Below are positions 10,428 to 63,751 of a DNA stretch of 64,000 bases, in pieces. Positions within the stretch are counted from its first letter, which is position 1. Each line of letters opens with the position of its first letter. Under the pieces are notes generated by a model, which saw only the letters and a program-made list of their open reading frames with translations, searched no databases and was not told where the DNA came from. The stretch is from an uncultured virus (IMG/VR IMGVR_UViG_3300034022_000723) (taxonomy: Duplodnaviria; Heunggongvirae; Uroviricota; Caudoviricetes), in IMG/VR virus record IMGVR_UViG_3300034022_000723, positions 1 through 64,000 of that record. One strand, written 5' to 3'. The position numbers and the translations under genes were made by a program.

Positions 10428-10436
10428 TTATATAAT

Positions 10437-10703: not shown

Positions 10704-10705
10704 TA

Positions 10706-11569: not shown

Positions 11570-11574
11570 ATATA

Positions 11575-12282: not shown

Positions 12283-12288
12283 AAAATT

Positions 12289-35354: not shown

Positions 35355-36644
35355 ATGGAAAAAATTATTTGTAGTTTAGAAGATTGGGACAGTATTTTTG
35401 ATTATTACAGACCTAACGGATCTTCTAAAACTTGGTATATAAAGGAATCAAAAAAATTGGCAATTCCACATACATTGGGGGAATGGAATGTATTAACGGA
35501 AGATGGTGAAATGTTTGACTTAGAACATTTAAGACATCAAACTACACCTAAAATTTGTAATTTAATTCAATATACACCAAAAAACGAATTAAATGGTTCG
35601 TCACATATATACATTATTAATATATATACGAATACGTTTTTTGAAAATAATTTAGATATTGGGTTTTCATGCATTTCAAAGAATTATATAGATGATATAA
35701 GAAATGGTAAATCTAAAATATTAATGTTTTTTATATATGAAGGTTATTCCGGAATGGAAAATAATGAAGATTTTGAGATAATAGAAAAATGGAGATTAGA
35801 ATCAAATTTACCAAAAAATTCTATCTTTTATGTGTGTGGAAATTTATTGTCAGAAAAAATAGTAATTGAAAGAAATTTAGGGTTTGGAGCAAAAGGGGTT
35901 TCACATTTTGAGCCGTGGAATAAATATAAGGGGAGAATCGTATCTTTTGAACCGACAAATGAAAAATATCTTTTTTTATCCTATAATAGACAATATAGAC
36001 ATCAAAGAATAAGATTTATAATTGATTTATTGGAAAAAAATCTTATATATAAAGGATTAATTAGTATAGATAAAATTTCAGAAATACCTTATGAAGTTTC
36101 AGATAATATAAAATCATTTTTTGATAATGAAACACCAATGACGATTGATACGATGCCTGAATTAAAATATAATTTGGCGGTTAACATAACTGTTGAAGAT
36201 TTTAAAAAAACATTTATTTCAGTAGTTACGGAAACATTAGTTGATGACGGGACACTATTTTTTTCTGAAAAAATTTGGAAACCAATTATGGTAGGTCATC
36301 CATTTATGGTTTACGGTAATCAGTATTCGTTAAAGTATTTAAAATCAATCGGTTTCAAAACGTTTGATAGATGGATAGATGAGAGTTATGATGATGAACC
36401 TGATAGGGATAAAAGATCTAAAATGATTGTTAATGAGTTAGAAAAATTTAGTTTAAAATCTTTAGATGAATTAAAAAAATTGAGAGAAGAAATGTTTGAG
36501 ATATGTGAATTTAATTACAACCATTTCAAAACTTATTATTTTGAAAATTACGGTGAAACCGACGAATCTAAAACAATTAAAGAAGTTTTAATAGGTATTT
36601 GGGAAGATATAAATAAAAATGGTAACAAAAAGAAATTAATATGA
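35355..36644 (+). CDS. 'TEK-family' putative glycosyltransferase-like protein
   Basis: FLSYNRQYRHQR; SVVTET; FFSEKIWKPI; GFKTF..WIDESYD. Confidence 0.55.
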   Translation: MEKIICSLEDWDSIFDYYRPNGSSKTWYIKESKKLAIPHTLGEWNVLTEDGEMFDLEHLRHQTTPKICNLIQYTPKNELNGSSHIYIINIYTNTFFENNLDIGFSCISKNYIDDIRNGKSKILMFFIYEGYSGMENNEDFEIIEKWRLESNLPKNSIFYVCGNLLSEKIVIERNLGFGAKGVSHFEPWNKYKGRIVSFEPTNEKYLFLSYNRQYRHQRIRFIIDLLEKNLIYKGLISIDKISEIPYEVSDNIKSFFDNETPMTIDTMPELKYNLAVNITVEDFKKTFISVVTETLVDDGTLFFSEKIWKPIMVGHPFMVYGNQYSLKYLKSIGFKTFDRWIDESYDDEPDRDKRSKMIVNELEKFSLKSLDELKKLREEMFEICEFNYNHFKTYYFENYGETDESKTIKEVLIGIWEDINKNGNKKKLI

Positions 36645-37780: not shown

Positions 37781-38504
37781 AAAAATTTTAATTGCTAGTG
37801 GTTGTAGTTTTACACACCAACCTTGGAGTTGGGCATACAAACTTAAAGAGTTAAATGAATATGACTTATTGAACGTATCAATGCCATGTCAAGGAAATAA
37901 CATTATTGCTCAAAAGGTTTTATATAATGTTAATGAACAATTAAAAACAAAAAAAAGTGAAGAAATAATTGTCGGTATCATGTGGAGTGGTATTGATAGA
38001 CACAATTTCTTTATAGATAATAATTTAAGATTAGAGAATGTAGACGGATGGGAAGAAAACCCAACAAGTATAGTTGAAAACCGTAAAAATTGGGTTATAA
38101 TAAATTCACATTGGAACACACCATTAGCTAAAATGTGGTATCAAAATTTCCATACATATGTAGGTGCAATGATAGAAACGTTACGAAATATTTTATTAGT
38201 ACAATTATATTTAGAAAAAAATAATATAAAATATTTTATGACCACATATATGGATATTTTAAATAAAGAAAACGAAACAACATTAAAACATCCTGAAGTT
38301 GAATATTTATTTAATATGGTAAATTTTGAGAAATTCTTACCGATAAATGGGTGTCATGAATGGGTTAAAATTAATTGTAAAGATAAAGGTTTTAATAAAC
38401 CTGATTTTAATGGATATATAGGAATTCACCCAAATGATTATGGGCATGAAATGTTTACAAAAGAAATAATATTACCATTTTTAAAAAATATAAATGTTAG
38501 ATAA
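37767..38504 (+). CDS. SGNH/GDSL-like protein
   Basis: ASGCSFT; QGN; IMWSG; HPNDYGH. Confidence 0.6.
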   Translation: MEENKKILIASGCSFTHQPWSWAYKLKELNEYDLLNVSMPCQGNNIIAQKVLYNVNEQLKTKKSEEIIVGIMWSGIDRHNFFIDNNLRLENVDGWEENPTSIVENRKNWVIINSHWNTPLAKMWYQNFHTYVGAMIETLRNILLVQLYLEKNNIKYFMTTYMDILNKENETTLKHPEVEYLFNMVNFEKFLPINGCHEWVKINCKDKGFNKPDFNGYIGIHPNDYGHEMFTKEIILPFLKNINVR

Positions 38505-40872
38505 AAGAGTTGGAATCTATAATATATCACATGTTGATGGAAGAGTAGGACAAGGTTTATCTTACATTATTGATGAAATTAAAAGATATAATTTTAACAA
38601 AATATTTTTTTTTAATATCACTGAGGCATCTTTTCGTGCGTTAGATAACGAAGAAAACTTTAAAATTTTTAAAAATTTATTGATTGATAGGAATATTAAA
38701 TTATATATTATTTGTGGTGCCGAATACCAACATCACATACATAAATCGGAATCAATATTTGGTAATAAACGTATAGTTGATTATATAAATATATTACCCT
38801 GGGGAACTTCATTGTTACACTATACAATGTACCATTTAAAATCACAAATATCTAATTTTGAAAATATAATAGATAGAAATAATTTTAATTATCTTTATCT
38901 ATGCTACAATAATAAGTCAAGATATCATAGATGTGAATTAATTGATAACCTATCAAAACATGAACTATTAAACGATGGTTTAGTATCTTGGAGAATGATT
39001 AAATACGATGATTACCAAATTAATTACGAATTTAAATATTGGAACGAAACATTGTTAAATATTGATTTAGAAGACGACGGAAAACAAATATTAAATGAAT
39101 GGACAAAACAAATATTGATACCCAATACATTTTTAACAATTGTAACAGAATCTAGTGATGATTTTCTTTTTGTAACAGAAAAAACCTTTAAGGCGATTTT
39201 ATTAGAACAACCATTTATATGTTTAGGTTATATGAACCAAAATTATATATTAGAAGAATATGGATTTGAATTATATCACGAAATAATTGATTATACATTT
39301 GATAAAAAACCAAATTTAAAGGAAAGAACTGATGGTGTAGTTAATAATTTATTAAATCTTAAAAATAAAAATTTAAATGATTTAAACAATATTATTAAAG
39401 ATAAGATTAAAAGAAATAAAAAAAGAGCGTTAGAAATCATAGAAAAAGATCCTTTTTTACCAAAAGAATTAATTGAATTATTTAAAGAATATACATATGA
39501 GGTACATGATGCAATTAATCAGGATGTAATCCCAAGTTACTTTTTAAATACGATTAAAAATATGATTAAAAAAAATACAATAAATTTAGTGTATGATGAT
39601 TGGTTAGACATTGACAATACAAATTATAACGGTAAAAAACATTTTCCTAATTTACATTTTGGAGATATGCATCATTTAATGTGGTCATATTTAGATAAAG
39701 GACTTTTTTTTGGATATCTACAAAATACATTATCGAGTAATGATAAATTTGAATTAAAAAAATGTAGATTTAATGAAGTATATGAGAGACCCGATGAAAA
39801 TTTTTATTATTTCATAACATTACATGGATTTAATTATGAACAAATTTTTAAACAAGCAAAATTTGAACAATTTTTTAATGAAAATTTAAAAAATGTTTTG
39901 TTAAAATGTGAAAATTTTTACGTGGGATTTGTTACAGAACACGAATCAGATGACGAAAACGGGTTTTTAGAACTTAATAATTTTGTAATTAAAAATAATT
40001 TAAATCCAAAACAATTTTATTTTATTAATAATAACTCATTAATTGATGATATTAAAAAAGAACATAATAGTGATATTAACGTATATAAAATTAATTTTTT
40101 ACCATTCTCATCAACTAGAGTATTAGAAATGGAGGGAGAGTGTTCTTTAATAACAGAAAAAAAAGGTAAATTTTTTATGTGTTTTAATAAAGGACCTAAA
40201 AGACATAGGTATGCGTTGTTATGTTTATTGAAAAAAAATAATTTATTAGAGGATATAAATTGGTCGTTAATACCTGACTATAATCCAAATGCTGAAAATG
40301 AATTTTATAGTCACATATTTAATTCACAAGAAATTGAATCGATAAAAGAAGAAATAAAATATTTTTTAAATATTGGAATTAAAAAAAATGATTATGAAAT
40401 AGATGCAAATTGGATAGATGGTGAGGGTAATTTTGTTAAAAATATTTTACCTGAATGGATGTTAGTCCCGACATTATGTGTGAATCATGAAAATTCTTAT
40501 ATTAACATAACTACGGAATCACAATATTTAGACGAAAATAAAGTTATCCACATAACCGAAAAATCATTTAAACCATTTTATTATTTTCAGTTTCCTTTAA
40601 TATTAGCAACTCATAATCACATAAAAAAGATGAAAGAATTATATGATTATGATTTTTTTGATGATATAATTAATCATGAATATGATAGTGAACCAAATTT
40701 CAAAAAAAGATTATACATGTTTGTAGAAGAAATAAAAAGATTGAATCAAAATAAAGAACAAATAAAAGAATTTTATAGAAATAACCAACAACGTTTTATT
40801 GATAATAAAAACAAAGTTTTAAAGATGTTGTCGGATACTTCAGATTTTACATTTTTTAAAAATTTAATATAA
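38494..40872 (+). CDS. Double-domain 'TEK-family' putative glycosyltransferase-like protein
   Basis: Two copies: CYNNKSRYHR...VTEKTFK and CFNKGPKRHR...ITEKSFKPF. Confidence 0.55.
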   Translation: MLDKRVGIYNISHVDGRVGQGLSYIIDEIKRYNFNKIFFFNITEASFRALDNEENFKIFKNLLIDRNIKLYIICGAEYQHHIHKSESIFGNKRIVDYINILPWGTSLLHYTMYHLKSQISNFENIIDRNNFNYLYLCYNNKSRYHRCELIDNLSKHELLNDGLVSWRMIKYDDYQINYEFKYWNETLLNIDLEDDGKQILNEWTKQILIPNTFLTIVTESSDDFLFVTEKTFKAILLEQPFICLGYMNQNYILEEYGFELYHEIIDYTFDKKPNLKERTDGVVNNLLNLKNKNLNDLNNIIKDKIKRNKKRALEIIEKDPFLPKELIELFKEYTYEVHDAINQDVIPSYFLNTIKNMIKKNTINLVYDDWLDIDNTNYNGKKHFPNLHFGDMHHLMWSYLDKGLFFGYLQNTLSSNDKFELKKCRFNEVYERPDENFYYFITLHGFNYEQIFKQAKFEQFFNENLKNVLLKCENFYVGFVTEHESDDENGFLELNNFVIKNNLNPKQFYFINNNSLIDDIKKEHNSDINVYKINFLPFSSTRVLEMEGECSLITEKKGKFFMCFNKGPKRHRYALLCLLKKNNLLEDINWSLIPDYNPNAENEFYSHIFNSQEIESIKEEIKYFLNIGIKKNDYEIDANWIDGEGNFVKNILPEWMLVPTLCVNHENSYINITTESQYLDENKVIHITEKSFKPFYYFQFPLILATHNHIKKMKELYDYDFFDDIINHEYDSEPNFKKRLYMFVEEIKRLNQNKEQIKEFYRNNQQRFIDNKNKVLKMLSDTSDFTFFKNLI

Positions 40873-49012: not shown

Positions 49013-50221
49013 ATGGAGAAACGTTTTAATGTTGTATGTGATGGTGTGTATTTTACTGAATTTGAAATCAGAAATGAATTAGAATCTTCCCCATCAAGAA
49101 ATGTACATAATTTAAAAATATGTAACATTGATGACGTTTCTGAAACACCAAACGAAAATTTTTATTATATCATAACAAAAATTGGTGAGTATTTAAATTT
49201 CACAAATGAAATTGACATCGTAAAAACTATACCAAATGAAATTAAAAATTGTTTTATTAATAATGAAAATTTTAAAATAATTTTTTTAGAATTAAACGAA
49301 TCAGATTTTGATGAGACAATTGAAATGGTTGATTATAGATTAAAAAAAGAAAACTTAAACCCAAAAAGAGTTTATTACATAAATGCCAATCATAAAATTG
49401 GAAATTTAAAAAATAAAAACAATAGTGATATTAATGTTTACACAATAAATCACGGACAATATGTTAATTGTTTCAGATTATCTTTAACAAATCCTGAATT
49501 TATATTAGAAAAAGAATTTTTATTTATGACACATAATAGATCAATGAAATCCCATAGGTTGGGTTTATTGTGTTTATTAAAAAAATATGATATTTTAGAT
49601 AATGTTGATTGGAGTTTACTTAGAGGGAGTGTGTTAAAAAATATGTTTAATGATGATGACATATTTGCTGAATGGTTTTTTAGTAATGTTTTTAGTGATG
49701 AAATTACAATCAGTTTAAAAAACGAAATAAAATATTTTGCGGATTTGGGGAATAGAAAAAGTAAATATGAACATGATTATGATTTTGATGGTGGAGGACA
49801 TAGATATGATCATGATGATTCATATAAAGTAAAAACATATTCAAATTCATATATTAACATTACCACTGAAACTAATTTTGAGTCTAATAATATAATACAT
49901 ATAACTGAAAAAACGTTTACACCATTTAATTTTTACCAAATACCTGTTTTTGTGGTCACATACCAACATGTTAAATATTTAAGAGATATGTATGGTTTTG
50001 ATATGTTTGATGATTTGGTAAACCATAGTTATGATAATGAAATTGATAATGGTAAAAGGTTATTTATGGTTGCAGATGAAATAAAAAGATTAAATGAAAA
50101 TCCACAATTAATAAAAGATTTTTATAAAAATAATGAAGAAAGATTCATAAAAAATAGAAATATAATTTTTGAAATTCTTAATGATAAAAGAGACTATAAT
50201 TTTTTCCAAAGTTTAATTTAA
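49013..50221 (+). CDS. 'TEK-family' putative glycosyltransferase-like protein
   Basis: FMTHNRSMKSHR; INITTET; HITEKTF; FDDLVNHSYD. Confidence 0.55.
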   Translation: MEKRFNVVCDGVYFTEFEIRNELESSPSRNVHNLKICNIDDVSETPNENFYYIITKIGEYLNFTNEIDIVKTIPNEIKNCFINNENFKIIFLELNESDFDETIEMVDYRLKKENLNPKRVYYINANHKIGNLKNKNNSDINVYTINHGQYVNCFRLSLTNPEFILEKEFLFMTHNRSMKSHRLGLLCLLKKYDILDNVDWSLLRGSVLKNMFNDDDIFAEWFFSNVFSDEITISLKNEIKYFADLGNRKSKYEHDYDFDGGGHRYDHDDSYKVKTYSNSYINITTETNFESNNIIHITEKTFTPFNFYQIPVFVVTYQHVKYLRDMYGFDMFDDLVNHSYDNEIDNGKRLFMVADEIKRLNENPQLIKDFYKNNEERFIKNRNIIFEILNDKRDYNFFQSLI

Positions 50222-52048: not shown

Positions 52049-52486
52049 ATGTCAATATATTGGTTCACCGGACAACCCGCATCAGGTAAAACTACGTTAG
52101 TAAACAATCTCCTAACTCATTTTGGTAAGGAGAATACTATCATTATAGATGGTGACGATTTGAGGGACATTTTCCAAAATAAGGACTATTCTGAGGTGGG
52201 AAGGAGAAAAAATATTGAAAGAGCACAAGACATTGCTCAATTTTTGAATAAAAAGGGGTTTACGGTCTTGGTATCCTTAGTTTCACCATATAAAGACCAA
52301 AGAGAGGACTTTAAGAATAGAGAAGACGTTGTTGAGGTTTATGTTCACACGACGGAAGATAGGGGTAGAAATCAGTTTCACGTAGAGAACTATGAACCAC
52401 CTACCGAAAACTTTATAGATTTGGATACAACGGATAAAACCGAAGTAGATTCTTATTATGAAATATTAAAAAAATTAACACTATGA
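52049..52486 (+). CDS. cysC: Adenylyl-sulfate (APS) kinase
   Basis: WFTGQPASGKTT; IDGDDLR; YSEVGRRKNI; SLVSPY; YEPP. Confidence 0.85.
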   Translation: MSIYWFTGQPASGKTTLVNNLLTHFGKENTIIIDGDDLRDIFQNKDYSEVGRRKNIERAQDIAQFLNKKGFTVLVSLVSPYKDQREDFKNREDVVEVYVHTTEDRGRNQFHVENYEPPTENFIDLDTTDKTEVDSYYEILKKLTL

Positions 52487-52869
52487 GTAAGAAATATGCA
52501 ATGTATGTGGGCAGATGGCAAAATTGGCACAAGGGTCACGAATGGTTACTTAACCAACAATTAGAAAAGGGAAAGAATGTGTGGGTGGCAATTAGAAATG
52601 TGGAGACAGATGAAAACAACCCAAAAACGGCACAACAAGTTATGATGGATTTAGCTGAAGAATCCTTCTTTAAGGAAAATTCACATAGAATTAACATATC
52701 CATCATCCCTGATATTGAGAGTATCAATTATGGTAGAGGAGTTGGGTATGATGTCATTTACCATGAACCACCTGAAGACGTGGCAAAAATTAGTGGTACA
52801 AGTATAAGAAACGGGTATATTGACTCAAACGGAGATATTATAGAATATCCAGATATGAATGACAAATGA
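52483..52869 (+). CDS. Small HxGH nucleotidyltransferase (cytidylyltransferase-like)
   Basis: GRWQNWHKGH; ISGTSIR. Confidence 0.75.
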   Translation: MSKKYAMYVGRWQNWHKGHEWLLNQQLEKGKNVWVAIRNVETDENNPKTAQQVMMDLAEESFFKENSHRINISIIPDIESINYGRGVGYDVIYHEPPEDVAKISGTSIRNGYIDSNGDIIEYPDMNDK

Positions 52870-53081
52870 TAGTAGAACGTAAACGACATATAGCTAAAAC
52901 CATCTCATATCGTATTGTAAGTACCCTTATTGGGTTTCTAATAATATGGTGGGTAAGTGGATCAATTAAGGTCGGTACGGCTTTCGGAGTGGTAGAACTG
53001 ATATATAAACCCATCCAATATTATCTTCATGAAAGAATTTGGTATAAATGGATAAAATTTGGATTAAAAGATAAAAAATAA
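52866..53081 (+). CDS. DUF2061-like small membrane protein
   Basis: RHIAKTISYR...YYLHERIW. Confidence 0.75.
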   Translation: MIVERKRHIAKTISYRIVSTLIGFLIIWWVSGSIKVGTAFGVVELIYKPIQYYLHERIWYKWIKFGLKDKK

Positions 53082-53108: not shown

Positions 53109-54638
53109 ATGAGGACAGTATTAATAGGTTCGGACTTTATGTACGACAAAGATGGTAATTTAAAACCAATTGAAATCAATACCGCAGTTGGTTGGCATAA
53201 TAATACAATTGAAGAAACCGACTCACTGTTGGATTTAACAACATTGACTACATTTATAACCGATAATTCTTTTACCAAAGTCGTATATATCGGAAATATT
53301 TCTAATTTAGATGTAGAATTATCAGGTTCATGTACCACATTAGGAATTGAATATGAAAAACATTTGGTATATACAAACTCAATCACCATCCCATTTGTTG
53401 AGGATAACAATCAAACTCTAATTATTAGAAGTGCTTACGACACCACTGCATTGGTAGATGACACATATTGTAGAGATAAAGTTAATTTTTTAAATTTAAT
53501 AAAAGATTCTTCTTTTGGGTCTCAATTTGCTTATTTAGATGAAAACAATTCAATCGTTAGTAATATAACAACAATTAACGATAATGGGGAACATCCAAAT
53601 TTTATTTTAAAAGCAAGATTACCTGATTATGATAAAGAAGTTTATCCTAAATTTTATAAAGTATCTACACAAGAAGAATTAGATAGTCTTATTTCAAATG
53701 TAGTTACTTCTGATTATTTTTTAATGGAGTTTCATTTAAATCAATCTGAATTAATACAAGACCATATAAAAGTTTTTAGAGGATTAAATTTATTATTCCC
53801 ACCAAATTTAGAATCTATATCATTAGGTGGTTATACAAGAGCATGCGATGATAAGATTACAATAAACTCATCATTTAATCCTACTACATTTGAATTAACA
53901 AATGGTCGTGAAAAATATATTGCAGGTAATTATCAATTATTACTACCAAAATTATCAGATACAGACTTGGTATTGATGAGTGATGGTACATACAAGGTTG
54001 CAACCGAATTGGTGGTAGGGGATGTATTAAAAACAATCGATATTCCTAATCCATTTGATGTTGTAGATATGAGCGCAGTTGCAAATTATAGAATATCACA
54101 ATCCGAATTAGAGAGTGGTACAACATACTCAACAAATGCTATTACTAACATAAGACGAGTGAATACATATTCTAAAATTGTTAAAATAACATTTACCGAT
54201 GGTAGTGATTGGTTTGATAACCGACATTCAAATTACCTTTCAATTAGAAATAATGAAGTAAGATTTTTAAAACTAAATGGTGGGGATAACGATGATTCAA
54301 TGGTTATTGGTGACAATATATTATTATTAGATACATTAAATTTTGAAACACCTTTATTTATAATAAAAGAAGTATCAAATATTGAAATGGTTTCTGAATT
54401 TTTTGGTGGGTATGAAATAACCGTAGAAAACGCTCATATATTCTTAACAAAATCAGATGTGGACTCAGATAAATCATATGTTTCAATTGAACATAATGGA
54501 GTGGATTGTACATATGAAAGTTTAAATAATTGTGAGTTCGGTGGTATATGTGGAAAAAACCAGCAGTGTTGTCCACTATCATGGAACGATAGACAATGTC
54601 TAAAAACGATTCAATGTCTCGCATGTAACCAAAAATAA
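53109..54638 (+). CDS. Circularly permuted ATP-grasp-like domain + Hint domain + C-terminal Cys-rich peptide
   Basis: N-term GSDF..D.DGNLK.IEINT; FILKAR; Hint-like LVLMSDGTYK...LVVGD...YEITVE..H.F...EHN; 8-Cys tail. Confidence 0.65.
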   Translation: MRTVLIGSDFMYDKDGNLKPIEINTAVGWHNNTIEETDSLLDLTTLTTFITDNSFTKVVYIGNISNLDVELSGSCTTLGIEYEKHLVYTNSITIPFVEDNNQTLIIRSAYDTTALVDDTYCRDKVNFLNLIKDSSFGSQFAYLDENNSIVSNITTINDNGEHPNFILKARLPDYDKEVYPKFYKVSTQEELDSLISNVVTSDYFLMEFHLNQSELIQDHIKVFRGLNLLFPPNLESISLGGYTRACDDKITINSSFNPTTFELTNGREKYIAGNYQLLLPKLSDTDLVLMSDGTYKVATELVVGDVLKTIDIPNPFDVVDMSAVANYRISQSELESGTTYSTNAITNIRRVNTYSKIVKITFTDGSDWFDNRHSNYLSIRNNEVRFLKLNGGDNDDSMVIGDNILLLDTLNFETPLFIIKEVSNIEMVSEFFGGYEITVENAHIFLTKSDVDSDKSYVSIEHNGVDCTYESLNNCEFGGICGKNQQCCPLSWNDRQCLKTIQCLACNQK

Positions 54639-54657: not shown

Positions 54658-54735
54658 ATGACAATAACAGAAAAACAAACAATTAATAATGTAATGGGTC
54701 AAATTGGTTCACTAATTATTACCGCAAATTCTTAA
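54658..54735 (+). CDS. 25-aa micro-ORF MTITEKQTINNVMGQIGSLIITANS
   Basis: Read by hand; A-rich leader like other genes; fills the intergenic gap. Confidence 0.45.
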   Translation: MTITEKQTINNVMGQIGSLIITANS

Positions 54736-54756: not shown

Positions 54757-55041
54757 ATGGATTTTGATTTCAAAAAAATCACTAAGGCTTGGTTTGATTC
54801 GTATTTTGGTTCGGATAAACAAAAAGAGATGGCGGTAAAACGTTCATCAATATGTGAAGTGTGCCCATCCCGTGACGTAAAAGTTAAAGGGATTGATTTA
54901 TTAACAGTATGTGGTGAATGCGGGTGCCCAATCAAGAAAAAAATATTTTCAGACGTTTTCAACGATTGTCCATTAAAAAAATGGGAATCAGTTGATTTAG
55001 AATATTTTCCATCAAGAAAAACTAATAAAACTTTATATTAA
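54757..55041 (+). CDS. Small Cys-rich metal-binding protein (DUF6171-like)
   Basis: R..ICEVCP...CGECGC...CPLKKW. Confidence 0.65.
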   Translation: MDFDFKKITKAWFDSYFGSDKQKEMAVKRSSICEVCPSRDVKVKGIDLLTVCGECGCPIKKKIFSDVFNDCPLKKWESVDLEYFPSRKTNKTLY

Positions 55042-55046
55042 ATTGT

Positions 55047-55427
55047 ATGATAACAGAAATCCATACATCAAATAAAATTTATATAAAATTTATTGATACT
55101 AAAAAAGGTTGGGGTGTCTTTTGTAAAGAAAAAATATTAAAAGATGAAATTGTAGAACAATGTTACGGAATAATTGATAATTATAAAACTACACCGTTAA
55201 AAGATTATTGTTTTGTATTAAACACAAAAAATCATCAGAACCACGACGCAATAATGCCAGTGGGGTATGGTGCAATATATAATCATAGTGATACACCAAA
55301 CATAACTTGGCAAAATATAGGTAAAATAGTAGAATTTATAGCCACTCAAGATATTGAAATTGGTGAAGAAATTTGTCATAATTATGGAGAAGGATATTTA
55401 GAAAAATGGGCCCACCGATTTATATAA
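55047..55427 (+). CDS. SET-domain protein methyltransferase
   Basis: KGWGVF; YNHSDTPN; FIATQDIEIGEEICHNYG. Confidence 0.85.
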   Translation: MITEIHTSNKIYIKFIDTKKGWGVFCKEKILKDEIVEQCYGIIDNYKTTPLKDYCFVLNTKNHQNHDAIMPVGYGAIYNHSDTPNITWQNIGKIVEFIATQDIEIGEEICHNYGEGYLEKWAHRFI

Positions 55428-56026
55428 TGAAAATCGCATTAATATATATCGCTAGAACAGGATCAACTTCCTTATTGAAGTATTTTGCAAAATTAAAACC
55501 TAATTATGTTTGTTATAATGAACCATGGTTTCCATGGGCAAAGAAAAATATACATACCGAAAATACGGAGTACAATGAATTAATTAAAAACGATAATTTA
55601 TTTATAAAATCTACATTAACCCATCTACCATGTTCATTAGAAACATTAATTTCTGATTTTGATACTGTTATTTTTTTAATAAGAAAAGACCTTAAATCCC
55701 AAATAGAAAGTCATATTTTAGTGAATAAAGAAATGTCATATTTAAACACCACAAAAAGAAAATATAACATACACAATATAACTGAAAGTGAAATTGAACA
55801 TTATAGTGAGATTACAAATAATCACATACAAAAAATAAAAACCACATCTAATACATATAATGTACCTCTATTTTATTATGAAGATTTATATTATGGTGAT
55901 TTTCAACCGATATTTGATGAATTGGGAATTGTATATAATAAAGAATATTATGATGAATATTTAAATATTTCTAACAAATATAGAATTGGTAATATGGACA
56001 TTAAAAACCATAAAACTTTAATTTAA
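55427..56026 (+). CDS. Sulfotransferase-like protein (P-loop, Stf0-like)
   Basis: ARTGSTSL; NEP; LIRKD...QIES; YYEDL; ATG at 55427 preferred. Confidence 0.65.
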   Translation: MKIALIYIARTGSTSLLKYFAKLKPNYVCYNEPWFPWAKKNIHTENTEYNELIKNDNLFIKSTLTHLPCSLETLISDFDTVIFLIRKDLKSQIESHILVNKEMSYLNTTKRKYNIHNITESEIEHYSEITNNHIQKIKTTSNTYNVPLFYYEDLYYGDFQPIFDELGIVYNKEYYDEYLNISNKYRIGNMDIKNHKTLI

Positions 56027-56503
56027 ATGAATATATGTAAAAATTTATTATCAGACAAAGAGTTATTTTTTTTAAATTCAATATGTTCAAATTTTGTTGA
56101 GACACAATTACCACACAATCGTAATAACTACGTTAGAAAAAACTTAAATATAAAAGAAGAGTTGTTAGAATATCAAAAAAGATGCTCAAAATATTTACCA
56201 GATGGGTATCAATTATATGATTTATGGATTAACAAGGTAACCAATAAAACAAATATTGATGACAATTATCATATTGATGTTGCGGATTTAAGTATCATCA
56301 CCTACATTAATGAAAATTTTGAGGGTGGAGAATTTCAGTATATTTTTAAAAATGAAGAAATAAAAGTAAAACCAATTATAAACCATAGCTTAATTATAAA
56401 TAAAGAAATAGAACATAGAGTTCTTAATGTAACTAATGGAGAAAGATTTAGTTTAATTTCTTTTTATAAAAAAATACAAAAAAAACAAAAAACATTAATT
56501 TAA
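56027..56503 (+). CDS. 2OG-Fe(II) oxygenase
   Basis: YHID; YINENFEGGEF; HRV; GERFSL. Confidence 0.8.
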   Translation: MNICKNLLSDKELFFLNSICSNFVETQLPHNRNNYVRKNLNIKEELLEYQKRCSKYLPDGYQLYDLWINKVTNKTNIDDNYHIDVADLSIITYINENFEGGEFQYIFKNEEIKVKPIINHSLIINKEIEHRVLNVTNGERFSLISFYKKIQKKQKTLI

Positions 56504-57565
56504 ATGAATACATTTAAAAATATAGATTTAAAAAATTATGTTTGTAGTGTTCCATTTAATTCATTAGAAATACATAATAATGTTTGCTTTGTATGTTGTC
56601 CATCTTGGTTACCAAATAAAATAGAACTTAATGAGATTCCTTTAAAAGATGTATATAATAGTGAACCTGTTATTGATATTAGAAATTCTATTTTAGATGG
56701 TTCATTTAAATATTGTAATAAAGAACTTTGCCCATATTTAAGTAAATTGGTAAATTACGGGGTAACATCTGGACCCGTTACTTTAAAAACAAAATTAAAC
56801 CCAAGTTTTTATAATCCTATTATAAAAAATAATACACCGGATTATCTTATAATGAATTTTGACAGGACATGCAATTATAAATGCCCTTCATGTAGAATTG
56901 ATTTAATTGTTGAAAATGGAGAAGGTATACAACGTGTTGAAAAAACAATTGAAGATATAGATAATTATTATTCTGCAAATGTAAAAACACTATACATAAC
57001 TGGTTCAGGTGACCCATTTGTATCGGTGGGGTTTAGAAATTATTTAAGAAATTTTAATCCTAAAAAATATCCAAAATTAATATCAATTCATTTACATACA
57101 AATGCAAGTATGTGGGATAAAAAAATGTGGGATAGTATGCCAAATATTCATAATTATGTAAACACTTGTGAAATCAGTATAGACGCTGGCACTAAAGATA
57201 CTTACGAAAATAAAACAAGAATAGGTGGCAATTGGGAAAATTTAATGAATAATCTTAAATTTATCAATACATTACCAATACGTGTTAAAACATCGTTTGT
57301 TGTTCAAGATAGTAATTATATGGAAATGGAAACATTTTATAATTTAATGTATTCTATATTTAGAAAAAAAGTAGATGTGTTTTTTGGAAAGATAACAAAT
57401 TGGGGAACATTTTCCGAAGGTGAATTTAAATTAAAACAAGTATGGGATGCCGAACATCCAGAACATGAATTATTTAAAAAAGAATTTAATAAAATATGGA
57501 AAAATCAAAATCTATTCCATAATTTATATGAGTTTATTGATAACACTAATAAAACTTTAATATAA
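56504..57565 (+). CDS. Radical SAM protein with N-terminal twitch/SPASM-like Cys cluster
   Basis: CSVPF...VCCPSW; C...CP; CNYKCPSC; GSGDPF. Confidence 0.8.
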   Translation: MNTFKNIDLKNYVCSVPFNSLEIHNNVCFVCCPSWLPNKIELNEIPLKDVYNSEPVIDIRNSILDGSFKYCNKELCPYLSKLVNYGVTSGPVTLKTKLNPSFYNPIIKNNTPDYLIMNFDRTCNYKCPSCRIDLIVENGEGIQRVEKTIEDIDNYYSANVKTLYITGSGDPFVSVGFRNYLRNFNPKKYPKLISIHLHTNASMWDKKMWDSMPNIHNYVNTCEISIDAGTKDTYENKTRIGGNWENLMNNLKFINTLPIRVKTSFVVQDSNYMEMETFYNLMYSIFRKKVDVFFGKITNWGTFSEGEFKLKQVWDAEHPEHELFKKEFNKIWKNQNLFHNLYEFIDNTNKTLI

Positions 57566-57571
57566 TTAAAT

Positions 57572-58087
57572 ATGAAACATAACATAATAAAAATTGACAT
57601 AAATGACATAAATTTAATAAAACAAGTTTATAAAAATGGTGAAGAAAATGGTCATAATGTAGAAACAAATCCATACAATAAAAGAAGGGATAAAAATACT
57701 TATAGTACTGAATTAGTTAAAAGTGAAACGTTTTTTTGTGATACACGTAATAAAGAATTAGTCGATATTGTTAAAAAATATATTAACATAAATGAAACAA
57801 CGGAATATATTGTTAATATGCATTATATTAATTATAAAATAGGTGAGGAAGCAAAAGAGCATATTGATACCGGTGCCTCAATAAGAACATATATAATATT
57901 ATTAAATGATAATTTTAATGGTGGTGAATTTTATCTGGATAATATCCATATCCCTCTAAAATTGGGCGAAATAATTGAATTTGATGCCAATTTATTACAT
58001 AAGGTTACTCCCATAATATCTGGCAATAGAGAAGTATTAGCGATATGGATTTTACCATCGCAAAAAAATAAAAAAACTTTAACATAG
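57572..58087 (+). CDS. 2OG-Fe(II) oxygenase
   Basis: HID; LNDNFNGGEF; HKV; GNREVL. Confidence 0.8.
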   Translation: MKHNIIKIDINDINLIKQVYKNGEENGHNVETNPYNKRRDKNTYSTELVKSETFFCDTRNKELVDIVKKYININETTEYIVNMHYINYKIGEEAKEHIDTGASIRTYIILLNDNFNGGEFYLDNIHIPLKLGEIIEFDANLLHKVTPIISGNREVLAIWILPSQKNKKTLT

Positions 58088-58251
58088 TGATAGTCCTGAT
58101 TTTATCACGTACAAGATGTGGATCTACTACATTATGTAAATGGATATCAAAAGAATTAGATATTGAATTAGATGAAACCCCATATGATAAAAAATATAGA
58201 AAAGACACATATACTTTAACGTATGATTTTAAAAGAAAAAATATTATTTAG
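58087..58251 (+). pseudogene. Internally deleted sulfotransferase remnant (54 codons)
   Basis: GTG start; (M)IVLILSRTRCGSTTLCKWISKELDIELDETPYDKKYRKDTYTLTYDFKRKNII carries the R.GST.L loop and KYR seen in 55427..56026. Confidence 0.55.
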
Positions 58252-58777
58252 TAAAGAGGAGTGTCAGTCCATTTTGAAAAATATTGAAAAATGGGATGAT
58301 ACTATTATAAGCGTACGATTGGGTGGACAATTAACCAACAAAGGAGGTATTATGAAATCGTTTAAAATAAATTGGGACGATAATAATAGTTGGATTAAAA
58401 ATAGAGTTATAAATTGGGTTAATTCTTTGGATGAGGTTTTGTATAAAATAAATCATAATAAAAACTTAAATGCGGGTTATAGAAAATATATCAAAGGTGA
58501 TTATTTTATAAAACATGATGATCATATTTACAATGGGGATAGGAGATTGTATACTATTGGTGTGATGATTCATAAATCGGAAGATTTAATTGGTGGAGAT
58601 TTAAAAATGTATATTAATAATGATGTAGTTAATATTGATTTTAATTTAGGTAATGTATATATATTTGATTCAAATACACCACATTCAGTTGATTTAATTG
58701 AATTGGGAGAAAGAATTACACTTATGTTTTTTATAGTTCAATCTGATACTATTAAAAATATAAAACATATTATATGA
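58223..58777 (+). CDS. 2OG-Fe(II) oxygenase
   Basis: KHDD; GGDL; PHSV; GERITL. Confidence 0.8.
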   Translation: MILKEKILFSKEECQSILKNIEKWDDTIISVRLGGQLTNKGGIMKSFKINWDDNNSWIKNRVINWVNSLDEVLYKINHNKNLNAGYRKYIKGDYFIKHDDHIYNGDRRLYTIGVMIHKSEDLIGGDLKMYINNDVVNIDFNLGNVYIFDSNTPHSVDLIELGERITLMFFIVQSDTIKNIKHII

Positions 58778-59271
58778 TAAAACAAAATAAACTATTTAGT
58801 AAAGAGGAGTGTCAGTCCATTATTTTTTATGGAAGTAATAATATTACCGATTGGGATTATAACGATAGAAAATACCACTCACAACCAATTAATTATTCAT
58901 TAGATACTAAATGGTTATTTGATAAGTTAAAGGATTTTGTTGAAAGAGAAACAACAATTAGGATTAGAACAATAAAAAAAACGATACATTTTCATAAATT
59001 TACAAAAGGTGATTGGTTTGGAAAACATAACGATGTTAGAGATAGAAGATTATACGCCGTGGGAGTTTTATTGAACGATGATTTTGAAGGTGGTGATTTT
59101 AAATTATACAACCCAAATGAAATTATATTAGATAAAGTTATTGGAAATACATATTTATTTGATGTAAGAATAGACCACGAAATAACACCAATTTTAGATG
59201 GAGAACGATATTCTTTATTGTGGTTTTTACAAAACGAACATGTAAAAATAGAAACAAATAAATTAATATAA
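58774..59271 (+). CDS. 2OG-Fe(II) oxygenase
   Basis: KHND; LNDDFEGGDF; HEI; GERYSL. Confidence 0.8.
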   Translation: MIKQNKLFSKEECQSIIFYGSNNITDWDYNDRKYHSQPINYSLDTKWLFDKLKDFVERETTIRIRTIKKTIHFHKFTKGDWFGKHNDVRDRRLYAVGVLLNDDFEGGDFKLYNPNEIILDKVIGNTYLFDVRIDHEITPILDGERYSLLWFLQNEHVKIETNKLI

Positions 59272-59272
59272 T

Positions 59273-59923
59273 ATGGAAAAAATATACTTTGATGATGAGA
59301 CATACATATGGAAAACTAAATTTGATATATCACATATGAAAGATAGTGTATTAGAAGAATGCCTTATTATTATTAAAGATATGGAAGATTTAAAGCCGAC
59401 GGATGCTTTTGGATTCTTTAGTGAATGGAAAGAAAATATAGATTTTAATGGTAATTTTGAATCAACTGCAAAAATACATGAAATAGTTAAAGAAGGAATA
59501 AATGTGTGTATTGAATTGTTTAATGAAAATATAAAATTACCATACAATAAAATAAATACAGAGGCGTGGATAAATGTTGTGAGAGCTAAAAATCCAAAGC
59601 AAAAAGATATTTCTAAGGAAAACGAAATAGTAATGCACAATCATACTGATTTAAATCATATGAGTAAAGTTTTTAGACCTGATTACACATATGTTCACTA
59701 TGTTCAGATGCCTGATAATTTAGAAGGTAACGATGGTGTGTTATACATAGAGGGTAAAGATGGAATTATTTATAATATTCTTCCAAAAGAAAATGATATA
59801 ATAATAATGGAAGGAAGAGTTCCACACGTACCTGCCTCTGCTAGAAAATCTACCAAAGATAGAATAGTTATAGCGGGTAATGTTGGATTTGAAATGATTA
59901 AAAAAACAAATACCTTAATATGA
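59273..59923 (+). CDS. 2OG-Fe(II) oxygenase-like (cupin) protein
   Basis: AWINV; HNH; YVHYV; PHVP; DRIVIAGN. Confidence 0.65.
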   Translation: MEKIYFDDETYIWKTKFDISHMKDSVLEECLIIIKDMEDLKPTDAFGFFSEWKENIDFNGNFESTAKIHEIVKEGINVCIELFNENIKLPYNKINTEAWINVVRAKNPKQKDISKENEIVMHNHTDLNHMSKVFRPDYTYVHYVQMPDNLEGNDGVLYIEGKDGIIYNILPKENDIIIMEGRVPHVPASARKSTKDRIVIAGNVGFEMIKKTNTLI

Positions 59924-60723
59924 GTCCATTAGAATATTGGAAACCTGAGACTTTTGAAATCTCATCATTTAAGTTTAAATTAGATGAACGAAAAAACAAA
60001 ATATTTAAAACATCGGGATCAGATAATACAGGTTTATGTACCTACACCTATAATGAATTAGGATTTAGGGGGGATAGTATAAAAAAAGAAGGATTTAAAG
60101 TAATGTCTTTGGGTTGTTCAATTACGGAAGGAGTTGGTGTAAATGATAATGAAACTTGGCCTGCACAATTTTGTAGTCATATGGAAAATGCGGTAAATTT
60201 TAATTTCGGAACAGGTGGAAGAAGTAATGATTTTATATGTAGATGTTTAATGAGTTATTATGATTTGATTAAACCAGATTTGGTTTTAATAATGTATACA
60301 TTCCCACATAGAAGAGAAATTTATACCGAAGATGGTGGAATTGAACCATTTATTCCAACAACTTCTTGGGGTTATTTAAAGGAGACGGATGACGGTATTA
60401 AAACACAAGAATATTTAACTTATTTACAAAATAATAATGAGGACATAATAAATTGGTATAAAAATCATTTATTAATAAAATATTTTTTAGAATCAAAAAA
60501 ATGTAATTGGATTTGGAATGGTGGAGAATTAAAATCACTTGAATATGATGACCCCAATAGGTTTGATGGAGATTACGGGAAATATTTAGATTTAGGTGTG
60601 GATAATCATCATCCAGGTCCAAACCATAATAAAACATATGCTCATAATTTACATGATTTTATATCAAAAAATTTCCCACAGTACATAAATAATTTACCAA
60701 AAAATATAGAAAATTTGATTTGA
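59920..60723 (+). CDS. SGNH/GDSL-like protein
   Basis: YNELGFR; LGCSITEGVG; GRSN; DNHHPG. Confidence 0.65.
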   Translation: MSPLEYWKPETFEISSFKFKLDERKNKIFKTSGSDNTGLCTYTYNELGFRGDSIKKEGFKVMSLGCSITEGVGVNDNETWPAQFCSHMENAVNFNFGTGGRSNDFICRCLMSYYDLIKPDLVLIMYTFPHRREIYTEDGGIEPFIPTTSWGYLKETDDGIKTQEYLTYLQNNNEDIINWYKNHLLIKYFLESKKCNWIWNGGELKSLEYDDPNRFDGDYGKYLDLGVDNHHPGPNHNKTYAHNLHDFISKNFPQYINNLPKNIENLI

Positions 60724-60754
60724 TTTTTCATTTATTTTCATTATATTATCATTA

Positions 60755-63751
60755 ATGAAAATACTTGCACATACATGTTTTATCGGAGTAACAGGATATG
60801 CTAATCACGCAAAGTCCTTTTTTTGTGCTCTGAACAAATACCACACAGTTAAGGTTAGAAACTCTACCATAGGTGGGGGTTGGAAGGGAATGAACGATAC
60901 ACCTCATGATGATGAACCATATATCACCGATGAGATGAAGGATATGTTAATTCTACAAACCCTAATCAATGGTGATGGTAGTAGATCTCATTTACCTATG
61001 TATGGTTATAAGAATGATTATAAACCTGACGTTCATATTGTATTGGTGGATATGAACAACTATTATTTTCACGAGAATTACGATGGATATAAGATAGCAT
61101 ATAACGTTTGGGAATCAACACGTTACCCACAAGATTTCTTTAAAAGATTAATGTATTTTGATGAGGTATGGGTACCGACCCAATGGCAGTTTGATTGTTT
61201 GGTTGAACAAGGATATCCATCATCAAAAATATCAATTGTACCTGAAGGAGTTGATGTGGAGACATTTAAACCGTTAAATAAGACACCAAAGAAAGATAAA
61301 TTTAGATTCTTACACTTTGGTAGATGGGATTATAGAAAAGGAACTACAGAGGTTTTAAGGACATTTGGTGAGGTTTTTAAAGGTAGAACCGATGTGGAGT
61401 TGATTGCGTCAGTTGAAAACCCATACGCATACGACGGAATGAAGACCACAGATGAAAGGGTTAAGTATCATAATATTAATGATGAGAATATTAACTTTAT
61501 TAAGTTCACCCCAAGAGAGGATTATGTGAAGTATCTACAAGAAGGTGACGTGTTCGTTACTTGTGCTCGTAGTGAGGGATGGAACTTACCGTTGATTGAG
61601 GCTATGGCTTGTGGAACACCATCAATTTACTCTAATTGGGGAGGTCAATTAGAATTTGCGGAAGGTAATGGTGTTCCCGTTAAGATAGATGGTTTAAGAC
61701 CTGCAAATGTGGAACATAAAGATTTCCCTGGTGAATATTGTGAACCAGATTGGAAAGATTTGGGAGAACAAATGTTAAATGTAATGAATGATTATAAAAA
61801 GTTTAAATCATTCGCAATAGAAGAATCAAAGGAAATTCATATAGATTTCAATTGGGATAAAATAGCAAAAACAGCATCAGAAATATTAATGGAAAAGAAA
61901 ACAATTAGAGAAGATGATTTTTATAAATCAGGAAAATTCTACACAGATGTAGACGTATTAGAAAATTTAGGGGACATTAAAGATTACCAAGGAGGGACTC
62001 TTGAAGTTGCGGATAAGTTTGGTTGGCCGAGAGCAATTTATCATGAAATTTTTAATTTAAAAGATTATTATAAATTCCCCAATCAAGACAAACGAATATT
62101 TGATGGAGATGTGGTAGTTGATTTAGGAGGAAACTTAGGTATCTTTAATAGATGGGCTTATAGTCAAGGTGCGTCTAAAGTAATTTCATTTGAACCAGAT
62201 AGAAGGTATTTCCAATTACTTTCAAAAAATGCCGACCCACGTTCAATATTATATAATGGTGCAATTGCGGATGAGATGGGTGAATTGGTTTTATCCGAAA
62301 CTGGACATTTAGGTGGATCTACATTATTGGAAACAAATGAAGTAACTAACACTTATGCTGTTAAAACATATACATTAAATCATTTGTTTGAAACAGGTGT
62401 TGTAAATAAAATAGATTTTTTAAAGATGGATATTGAAGGTGCTGAACATCACGCATTTTTAGGTATATCGGATGAAAATCTATTAAAGGTTAGAAACATA
62501 GCAATGGAATATCACCATAATTTATTAGGGTATAATGTTGAACTAAGAGAAAACCTTATCAAAAGAATGGCAGGATTAGGATTTGGTCATTTTACTTTAT
62601 TTTGTGGAGGTAACGACAACTTACAAATGTTATATTTTGAAAGAAAGGTCGCATCAAATAGAAGAACAAATGTACATTTCGTAGATGGTCCATTTGTTGA
62701 AATTAATGAGGATAATGAACACCAGTACAATGTTCAATTTATTGATGGGGATACGGGTGACATTGTCTATGAAACCAACATCAAGAGTAATCATTGGACA
62801 AGAGCATCTAAAAAATATTATGTTAATTGGATTGTTAAGATTAAAGGTATTGATAATAATTTTTATAGAGAGGAGAAATTTAATCCTGAAGGTCAAAGAA
62901 TTATGATATGTTTCGAATCTAAATCTTTGGGGGATAGTTTAGCGTGGATACCATATGTAGAAGAGTTTAGAATTAAAAATAAGTGTCATATTATATGTTC
63001 AACATTTAAAAATGATTTATTTAAAGGGCAATATCCTGAAATTGAATTTGTGGAACCTGGTGTTGGGGTGAATAACATTTATGGTCTATATAGATTAGGT
63101 TTATTTTATGATGATAAAAGAACAATTAGATATGATAATCATCCGTCCAATCCTAAAGTAGAACCATTGGGTAAAATGGCAACGGATATATTGGGTTTAG
63201 AATATAAAGAGATTAGACCTAAATTACCAACTTTTAGTAATAAGAAAAAGAAAAGAGTGTGTATTGCTGTCCATTCAACATCACAATGTAAGTATTGGAA
63301 CAACGCAACAGGATGGCAACAAGTGGTTAATCATCTTAAAAGGAAAGGTTATGAGGTAAGATTATTATCTAGAGAAGAGGATGGATATATGGGTAATAAG
63401 AACCCACAAGGGGTCGTACAACAAAAATCAGGACCAATCGAGAAGGTAATTCAAGTTTTAGAAGAGTCGGAACTTTTTATAGGTATTGGTAGTGGATTAA
63501 GTTGGTTGGCGTGGTCTGTGGGTATTCCTTGTGTCATCATTTCAGGTTTTAGTGAGGAATATAGTGAACCAACAATCGGAGTTTCAAGAATTATTAATAA
63601 AGATGTTTGTCATGGATGTTGGAATGTTTACGATTTTAACCCTGGAGATTGGAACTGGTGCCCTGTAAATAAAGGTACAAAACAACAATTTGAATGTTCC
63701 AAATCAATCACAGGTCAAGATGTCATAAAAGAAATTGATAAATTAATATAA
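60755..63751 (+). CDS. Fusion: GT4 glycosyltransferase + FkbM-type methyltransferase + TibC/Aah-like protein O-heptosyltransferase domain
   Basis: GRWDYRKG...RSEGWNLPLIEAMACG; VDLGGNLG..FEP...LKMDIEGAE; SLGD.LAW.PY...KYWN..GW...FIGIGSGLSWLAW...ISGFS...CHGCWN...WCP...FECSKSI. Confidence 0.8.
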   Translation: MKILAHTCFIGVTGYANHAKSFFCALNKYHTVKVRNSTIGGGWKGMNDTPHDDEPYITDEMKDMLILQTLINGDGSRSHLPMYGYKNDYKPDVHIVLVDMNNYYFHENYDGYKIAYNVWESTRYPQDFFKRLMYFDEVWVPTQWQFDCLVEQGYPSSKISIVPEGVDVETFKPLNKTPKKDKFRFLHFGRWDYRKGTTEVLRTFGEVFKGRTDVELIASVENPYAYDGMKTTDERVKYHNINDENINFIKFTPREDYVKYLQEGDVFVTCARSEGWNLPLIEAMACGTPSIYSNWGGQLEFAEGNGVPVKIDGLRPANVEHKDFPGEYCEPDWKDLGEQMLNVMNDYKKFKSFAIEESKEIHIDFNWDKIAKTASEILMEKKTIREDDFYKSGKFYTDVDVLENLGDIKDYQGGTLEVADKFGWPRAIYHEIFNLKDYYKFPNQDKRIFDGDVVVDLGGNLGIFNRWAYSQGASKVISFEPDRRYFQLLSKNADPRSILYNGAIADEMGELVLSETGHLGGSTLLETNEVTNTYAVKTYTLNHLFETGVVNKIDFLKMDIEGAEHHAFLGISDENLLKVRNIAMEYHHNLLGYNVELRENLIKRMAGLGFGHFTLFCGGNDNLQMLYFERKVASNRRTNVHFVDGPFVEINEDNEHQYNVQFIDGDTGDIVYETNIKSNHWTRASKKYYVNWIVKIKGIDNNFYREEKFNPEGQRIMICFESKSLGDSLAWIPYVEEFRIKNKCHIICSTFKNDLFKGQYPEIEFVEPGVGVNNIYGLYRLGLFYDDKRTIRYDNHPSNPKVEPLGKMATDILGLEYKEIRPKLPTFSNKKKKRVCIAVHSTSQCKYWNNATGWQQVVNHLKRKGYEVRLLSREEDGYMGNKNPQGVVQQKSGPIEKVIQVLEESELFIGIGSGLSWLAWSVGIPCVIISGFSEEYSEPTIGVSRIINKDVCHGCWNVYDFNPGDWNWCPVNKGTKQQFECSKSITGQDVIKEIDKLI

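Follow-up and report, generated by a model that had tools for sequence, protein, structure and literature searches.

Class I PDZ ligands take the form x-[S/T]-x-hydrophobic-COOH, and both encapsulin cargo-loading peptides and peroxisomal targeting signal type 1 (PTS1) are short terminal addresses carried by unrelated cargo. Borosins are enzyme-core fusions, and the X-domain of nonribosomal peptide synthetases (NRPS) recruits P450s. The targeting tripeptide of cytosolic iron-sulfur assembly (CIA) is [LIM]-[DES]-[WF]-COO-, according to the consulted part of its description (PMC10245660). Short C-terminal address signals are known from eukaryotic and bacterial cells, and none was found described for an enzyme island of a phage. 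Such a signal is reported here from an uncultured large freshwater phage, in a stretch of 64,000 nucleotides (the window) that forms bases 1-64000 of a 116.5-kb IMG/VR virus record (IMGVR_UViG_3300034022_000723, 35% complete). About ten unrelated modifying enzymes of an island in this phage share one short C-terminal tail, or tag, whose consensus is a Lys/Asn-rich linker followed by [K/N]-[T/S/K]-[L/I]-[I/L]-COOH. The tagged genes lie beside a gene at 53109 encoding a ligase-Hint protein, the hub, and the best reading, if a tentative one, is that the tagged enzymes dock on this hub and a 25-aa helix encoded directly behind it.

The ten endings that the original prediction quoted for 54757-63751, as well as six upstream, are all present and in frame with the stop. 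Counted over the 148 open reading frames (ORFs) of the same genome that remained after 4 overlapping ones had been removed by eye, K-T-L-[I/T/Y]-stop ends 5 of the 11 genes in 54757-63751 but none of 41 in 13992-54756 and none of 96 elsewhere; the internal frequency of K-T-L-[I/T/Y] in the proteins of this genome is 0.00006 per position. [L/I]-I-stop, with an internal frequency of 0.0127, ends 8/11, 6/41 and 0/96 genes in these three sets, i.e., 8/11 vs 6/137 in the rest of the genome (Fisher p 9e-8). The same phage is also represented by a 212-kb record (G001, the record of locus L002), where the strict motif, defined as [KN][TSK][LI][IL]-stop, occurs on only one of 99 further genes, mostly core and structural. 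The structural genes therefore lack the tag, as had been claimed.

Codon and tail statistics were drawn from 95 related loci, with one protein kept per 90% cluster and with two hydrophobic residues at the end as a looser criterion. Among 15 cassette families, which were chosen after their tails had been viewed, 162/314 proteins carry the strict tag and 270/314 end in two hydrophobics, against 16/565 and 62/565 for all other families at the related loci; the counts by position around the hub, given below, are free of such selection. In the cassette proteins (n=314), Ile or Leu is terminal in 89%, codon position -3 holds Thr/Ser in 56%, Lys in 18% and Asn in 11%, and the most conserved position is the penultimate Leu/Ile; the residues preceding the tag are rich in Lys, Asn and Thr. 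The tag is strictly terminal: among 92 internal strict matches in these 314 proteins, 2 lie near the end, both within hydrophobic endings. Several neighbours serve as untagged controls in relatives, namely APS (adenosine 5'-phosphosulfate) kinase (3/40 tails), an adenylyltransferase-like protein (0/58), DUF2061 (1/45), a carbamoyltransferase (1/31) and the hub itself, so that the neighbours concerned with the supply of PAPS (3'-phosphoadenosine 5'-phosphosulfate) and the carbamoyltransferase lack the tag as the structural genes do.

The tag is a selected peptide acting at the protein level, which agrees with the proposal of a protein-level signal shared by tailoring enzymes that can be swapped: information sits at second codon positions, Ser comes from both of its codon families, and the spacing to the next start is irrelevant. 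When the genes are aligned on the stop, second codon positions hold 0.80, 1.47 and 1.21 bits and third positions 0.11, 0.25 and 0.37 bits; when they are aligned on the next ATG, information is at most 0.49 bits. A DNA-level cause, whether AT-rich composition, the context of the following start codon or a recombination site where genes end, would suit a genome of 30% GC (the value found in the window) with A/T-rich start contexts, in which a final ATA is favoured by ATGA overlaps. Against it stand not only the weak alignment on the next ATG and the low third positions, but also the codons drawn on in cassette tags (Ser at -3, TCN 40 and AGY 21; Leu at -2, TTR 170 and CTN 42), Ser at -3 within the 59273 family alone being AGY 26 times and TCN 24 times. 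Moreover, the tag is kept in uncoupled genes (62/76 in the cassette vs 22/293 in others) as well as in ATGA-coupled ones (64/68 vs 11/54), and the offsets to the next ATG along the run are -4, -1, 0, 0, 1, 5, 6, 23, 28, 31 and -4. One sulfotransferase-like family is a DNA-linked exception that speaks for such a cause, its tail being taken from a 28-nt overlap with the following gene, as is the KNII of the remnant at 58087-58251, encoded in the overlap with gene 58223. A frequency equal to the AT-rich background and conservation tracking the next start codon, which the original prediction had set against itself, were both tested and neither was seen. The codon and spacing tests thus largely refute DNA-level causes, which are nearly excluded.

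The tag is linked to the hub. By position relative to the hub, strict tags are found on 21/36, 27/39 and 23/40 genes at +1 to +3, on 0/41 at -14 to -11 and on 1/59 at +13 to +16. Within four genes of the hub, a strict tag is present in 123/137 hub lineages (85% clusters, from IMG/VR loci) and on 359/1019 neighbours; altogether, 837 tagged neighbours in 100 clusters were collected, part of them chance endings. Tagged genes flank hubs across changing genomic contexts, and the same consensus recurs around hubs of 25-30% identity. The small Cys-rich protein encoded directly behind the helix ORF is instructive here: it lies beside 107/120 hubs having a Cys tail, and at loci reached through it, distinct tails are tagged in 49/51 cases with a hub nearby and in 1/4 without. 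At each of three loci (L201, L301, L305), one contig has both a long form with the tag, next to the hub, and a short form without it, the tagged form being longer by a linker of 15-24 residues.

No pair other than the hub and the helix ORF is shared by all clades examined, a helix ORF of 24-52 residues lying directly after 130/137 hubs. In three Hint-less database proteins from three hub clades (P0194, P0256, P0275), rare records known as protein sequences alone, the ligase domain ends in the helix of its own clade (E 9e-7, 6e-4 and 2e-7 among 390 tails; next best 0.87). Taken together, these fusions suggest that helix and ligase form one unit; the helix is probably a subunit of the ligase domain, and a partnership of hub and helix is strongly indicated.

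Two folds are recognised in the hub, for which searches of Pfam, PHROGs, NCBIfam and PDB sequences gave nothing significant and no solved relative, and a profile search gathered 481 clusters of relatives at 50% identity. The N-terminal domain has the permuted ATP-grasp fold with its metal-binding D and E-x-N. It matches YgiC (7uka, Z 8.7, rmsd 4.2 over 192 residues) and glutathionylspermidine synthetase (GspS, 2io7, Z 8.3); as a group, YgiC, GspS and glutathione synthetase (GS) give Z 8.0-8.7 and rmsd 4.2-5.1 over about 200 residues, with E about 1e-5 against human and yeast GS, while RimK and LysX/ArgX (4iwx, 3vpb, 5k2m) match more weakly (Z 5.6-5.8). Its conserved residues D9, E22, N24, R107, K168 and R224 are intact, and E-x-N-[TS] is retained in 137/137 full hubs. 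Judging from the model, this domain would form amide bonds in an ATP-dependent manner, a putative activity. In the Hint domain, H462 and N463 are present in at least 90% of 104 aligned rows and the +1 residue is variable; residue 281, equivalent to intein residue 1, is Lys, and neither Cys nor Ser is conserved there. Because Lys occupies the place of Cys1 of inteins, the Hint domain should cut only at its C-terminal side.

The segment released by such a cut would differ greatly between relatives, where other Cys peptides, a peptide with an S74 chaperone, BACON adhesins, second Hints or only 0-6 residues follow the Hint domain. S74 chaperones were seen in 8/10 hub tails picked by hand (3 over the cut-off) and BACON in 3/13 (2 over the cut-off), which links the released module with fibres or adhesins. 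A hub clade with products of 1100-1670 aa (P0230, P0233, P0238, P0245, P0246, L210), some with BACON, appears to have a large, adhesin-like released part. At L216, L217, L218, L138 and L260, the hub is followed by one or two extra Hint domains with Cys at position 1.

From these elements, a mechanism can be proposed in which the tag serves for docking through its free carboxylate and sits on a flexible linker rich in Lys and Asn. The tag would bring interchangeable tailoring enzymes (2OG [2-oxoglutarate] oxygenases, sulfotransferases, SGNH, SET and radical SAM [S-adenosylmethionine] proteins and the small Cys protein) to the complex of the ligase-Hint protein and the helix. After a Hint cut behind Asn463, the variable C-terminal module would expose a free amine, which the ATP-grasp domain would link to an acceptor carboxylate, probably one on a fibre of the virion, and the docked enzymes would modify the released module or the acceptor, giving a varied surface facing the host.

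Binding of the tag to the hub received weak support from a complex prediction with the proteins of a relative, L045 (hub 1-454, helix ORF and C-terminal 32 residues of its small Cys protein). This complex of the tagged tail with ligase and helix scored 0.54 vs 0.00 for the best control; contact agreement was at least 35% and partner pLDDT at least 36 over the runs, and replacing the hub brought the score to 0.00. In the benchmark, the mark was reached by 116/157 solved complexes and 2/215 mismatches, and of these only 18 solved complexes, along with both mismatches, lay at 0.60 or below. Ligase paralogues without a Hint domain from two clades (P0244, P0273, P0274, P0276, P0197) have themselves acquired the tag or an ending closely similar to it; four of these five have an altered E-x-N, and they may be decoys or second ligases. 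A search for their loci gave four, all of them ordinary hubs by identity.

The partners proposed originally fared unequally: the protein of 54757 belongs to the tagged clients, and the strongest candidate, as a putative reader, is that of 53109. A PDZ protein of the phage, also proposed, was not found, PF00595 matching in 0/4 records (G000, G001, G002, G003, the last two being complete genomes used for comparison) and PF17820 in 0/3, with positive controls; PF00515 matched in 0/3, this being the TPR model searched. A reader with either domain encoded by the phage was rejected on these grounds. The small Cys protein was likewise rejected as reader, since next to hubs that have no Cys peptide it is either lacking or devoid of the tag: among 17 hubs without a recognised Cys tail, 8 have a member of its family, of which 7 are short and untagged, and the eighth hub has a Cys tail overlooked by the His-Asn rule.

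A doubtful but sizeable alternative is that another protein reads the tag, be it a component of the virion or a scaffold whose gene lies elsewhere, or a protein of the host, for example a membrane or PDZ protein or a tail-specific protease. Clustering around the hub would then reflect co-regulation and co-transfer of one functional island. Tags on dispersed genes of G002 and the one consensus around hubs of 25-30% identity would agree with this, PDZ and TPR proteins are present in hosts, as the profile-search controls indicate, and the tag suits x-[S/T]-x-hydrophobic if -3 is Thr or Ser. However, Thr or Ser occupies -3 in only 56% of the cassette proteins, core and structural genes are untagged, the two complete phage records yielded no PDZ or TPR gene, and the complex score vanishes once the hub is replaced.

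Docking on the hub itself meets with several observations that weigh against it. The L045 score is weak and comes without an interface, it was made with a relative and not with the proteins of the window, and the 32-residue partner includes part of a domain besides the tag. Within the cassette, a 156-aa oxygenase subfamily is never tagged; complete G002 has 7/12 strict tags outside the cassette, and in complete G003 the hub is accompanied by little besides the small Cys protein. Hubs with 0-6 residues after the Hint domain are still flanked by tagged genes, so that the Cys-rich peptide is not the sole possible substrate. The hub-less records behind L399 and L401-L403 had no hub, but they are 6-28% complete and hence uninformative; with no informative complete genome that bears the enzymes and lacks the hub, linkage is indistinguishable from joint inheritance. 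A Phe variant of the tag clusters by locus across families (39 pairs vs 20.9), and with 31/100 families kept this concordance is seen with hubs clustered at 85% (p 0.015) and 70% (p 0.02) but is gone at 60% and 50% (p 0.11 and 0.45). Finally, one RNA run, with 0.05 of words and 25 short pieces mostly from relatives, gave no evidence of expression. A tag dialect co-varying with hub clade was considered and dropped, as it fades after kinship correction. Several of the out-of-cassette tagged proteins of G002 look SGNH- or sulfotransferase-like by eye.

The tag could also be the acyl donor of a covalent ligation, which is judged improbable. The helix-completed ligase would recognise the K-T-L-I end, phosphorylate its terminal carboxylate and join it to the amine that the Hint cut exposes or to another amine, and the enzyme would be welded to the variable peptide, an adhesin or a virion part. 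GS-type ligases use the C-terminal carboxylate of a peptide, and RimK and LysX/ArgX the C-terminal residue of a protein; the strictly terminal tag would fit such chemistry. The Hint domain has lost its own activating Cys, a step that the ligase could take over, and type A bacterial intein-like (BIL) domains cleave by Asn cyclisation with a freed amine that can attack an activated acyl group, as stated in the consulted part of PMC4031507. On the other hand, there is one amine per hub for up to a dozen tagged proteins around it, the S74 and BACON modules appear to be fibre-bound and not enzyme-bound, the donor could just as well be a virion protein or the product of the helix ORF, and the L045 prediction gives no information on a site.

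A role in cofactor loading, with delivery of Fe or Fe-S in the manner of the eukaryotic CIA tripeptide, is very improbable. Many clients bind iron (2OG oxygenases, radical SAM), and the precedent is a C-terminal tripeptide in the consulted part of PMC10245660; yet sulfotransferase-like, SGNH-like and SET proteins are tagged as well, one oxygenase subfamily is untagged, and the consensus is unlike [LIM]-[DES]-[WF].

Features of the hub and the tagged cassette. Fractions in the column on relatives are distinct tails of relatives that end in two hydrophobics.
Position	Strand	Feature	Ending (position)	Relatives	Remarks
52049..53081	+	APS kinase, 128-aa adenylyltransferase-like, DUF2061	untagged		internal control
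53109..54638	+	hub, 509 aa	untagged	0/44	AF2 model pLDDT 90.2, pTM 0.86
53109..53936	+	hub residues 1-276, predicted circularly permuted ATP-grasp amide ligase			glutathione/glutathionylspermidine synthetase type
53937..54497	+	Hint domain, hub residues 277-463	His-Asn		BIL2 6tmm Z 15.1, rmsd 3.2 over 151
54498..54635	+	hypervariable Cys-rich peptide after His-Asn			swapped in relatives
54658..54735	+	amphipathic-helix ORF, 25 aa			unannotated; directly behind hub
54757..55041	+	small Cys-rich protein, weakly DUF6171-like	linker + KTLY (55027-55038)	122/132
55047..55427	+	SET-domain protein	degenerate HRFI (55413-55424)	6/6	PF00856 E 4e-13
55427..56026	+	sulfotransferase-like protein	KTLI (56012-56023)	6/6
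56027..56503	+	2OG-Fe(II) oxygenase	KTLI (56489-56500)	29/30	PF13640
56504..57565	+	radical SAM enzyme, twitch type	KTLI (57551-57562)	40/41	below family cut-off
57572..58087	+	2OG-Fe(II) oxygenase	deviant KTLT (58073-58084)	21/25
58087..58251	+	deleted remnant, 54 codons, of 186-aa sulfotransferase-like gene	KNII		keeps ending
58223..58777	+	2OG-Fe(II) oxygenase	KHII (58763-58774)	30/30
58774..59271	+	2OG-Fe(II) oxygenase	NKLI (59257-59268)	65/65
59273..59923	+	probable 2OG-Fe(II) oxygenase-like protein	NTLI (59909-59920)	41/42	phrog_274
59920..60723	+	SGNH-like protein	ENLI (60709-60720)	28/44	weak GDSL/DUF6071; last cassette gene
60755..63751	+	glycosyltransferase-methyltransferase-GT9 fusion	DKLI	4/8

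The tagged genes differ in how well they are characterised (Table). The small Cys protein has a coil at residues 84-94, with pLDDT dropping to 51 in the one model made; its best fold match is Z 3.8, and Foldseek gave no match at E 0.001. The start of the sulfotransferase-like gene at 55427 was placed from the overlap with the upstream stop, and 11-77% of the members of its Atlas neighbours carry sulfotransferase families. All of the best 120 homologues of the radical SAM enzyme end in Ile, 105 of them in KTLI. The remnant at 58087-58251 has a GTG start that overlaps the upstream stop and retains both gene ends. This remnant, the SET gene at 55047 and the ORF at 54658-54735 had been passed over in the original prediction, in which the quoted endings were correct. 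The genes at 52049-53081 probably supply PAPS, and in many relatives the APS kinase, adenylyltransferase-like and DUF2061 genes are seen upstream of the hub.

Beyond the cassette, the ending of the glycosyltransferase fusion, which had been suspected of being coincidental, probably is so, leaving this gene outside the tagged set. Of the tag-like endings claimed upstream, those at 28759 (1/1 relative tails) and 35355 (3/5) may be tags, but those at 38494 and 49013 (4/9), 40874 (8/16) and 41622 (0/1) are not consistent in relatives. An SGNH gene near 32066 lies 21 kb from the cassette and has no tag, yet 31/31 relative tails end in two hydrophobics. The left part of the window holds tail-fibre genes and is followed by a long glycan and tailoring island. 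Two paralogous families of 400-430 aa (one doubled) without a Pfam match are found in this island, one at 28759-30048 and 35355-36644, the other at 32803-34068, 38494-40872 and 49013-50221. Next to the tail-fibre gene, at 9050-13950, lie six short genes of virion type whose N-termini (MA[TNS]L...T) are nearly identical; these shared N-termini are possibly an N-terminal counterpart signal or a common domain. Promoter scans stayed at background level, and the start codons have no G-rich upstream signal, a lack that is also a trait of Bacteroidota. IMG/VR lists G001 as a provirus; the end regions read look phage-coded, and a host flank was not recognised.

As to distribution, neither the hub nor a relative of the radical SAM enzyme was found in cultured phages, where 26 records contain distant 2OG relatives; of the three that were read, none has the K/N-T/S-L-I tail (one ends QWIV). 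A pattern scan of cellular genomes did not find the hub. Short contigs of two GTDB metagenome-assembled genomes (L375, L377), reached via the small Cys protein, contain hub sequence and the small Cys gene and are probably binned phage DNA; the only copy of this small protein from an isolate (Pedobacter, L376) is a short form without the tag.

The system of tag and hub is undescribed in the literature searched, subscription papers and supplements not being covered, and it is not mentioned in the consulted part of a review of jumbo phages (PMC7824862). In hundreds of aquatic phage lineages, about a hundred sequence families bear the tag in the neighbourhood of a single, previously undescribed ligase-Hint protein. 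The orphan oxygenases and sulfotransferases that are numerous in large phages are thereby grouped into one pathway for which a candidate reader can be named. If the hub reads the tag, it would be a plug-in platform for decorating a surface module that varies; should it ligate the tag, this would be a protein-conjugation chemistry with a four-residue handle, which would be categorically new.

Compared with described systems, the phage tag resembles encapsulin cargo peptides and PTS1 as a short terminal address on unrelated cargo, but it has only four residues; across the 137 loci, the hub, the helix ORF and the tagged enzymes are the only conserved neighbours, and a shell gene was not seen, an encapsulin profile not having been run. 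With class I PDZ ligands it shares four terminal residues, a free carboxylate, a hydrophobic end, often Thr or Ser two residues before it and a flexible tail; unlike them, it is most conserved at the penultimate Leu/Ile and commonly has Lys or Asn at the Thr/Ser position, and a PDZ gene was not found in the phage records searched, a PDZ protein of the host being a possible reader. As with the CIA tripeptide, unrelated enzymes bear one short terminal signal recruiting them to a shared complex; however, relative to the consulted part of PMC10245660, which deals with eukaryotic Fe-S delivery, the residues differ, clients without metal are included and the clients are encoded beside the candidate reader, so that the phage tag is not the [LIM]-[DES]-[WF]-COO- of Fe-S clients. 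The Hint domain resembles type A BIL domains, as far as these are treated in the consulted part of PMC4031507, and Tetrahymena BIL2 (6tmm, 6y75) in its fold, its terminal His-Asn and the lack of a fixed +1 nucleophile. It differs from type A BIL domains in having no Cys or Ser at position 1, hence no N-terminal thioester, and in being fused behind an ATP-grasp ligase; tagged client sets do not appear in the parts consulted of the literature on BIL domains.

In its fold, and in having the metal motif D...E-x-N close to the N-terminus, the ligase domain is like YgiC 7uka, GspS 2io7, GS 2hgs, RimK and LysX/ArgX. Unlike GS- and GspS-type ligases, to which it is 9-14% identical, it lacks the first 90-300 residues, is fused to a Hint domain and needs a separate helix; it also has Gly in place of the Arg of R-x-D in GS. 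A comparison with ribosomally synthesised and post-translationally modified peptides is invited by the variable Cys-rich core behind His-Asn, yet the tagged enzymes persist where this core has 0-6 residues. Like borosins, the hub joins an enzyme and a variable core in one chain, and, like the NRPS X-domain, it would gather several oxygenases on one platform; it differs from both in the release by a Hint domain, in the ligase as fused enzyme, in recruitment through the C-termini of the clients and in its phage setting.

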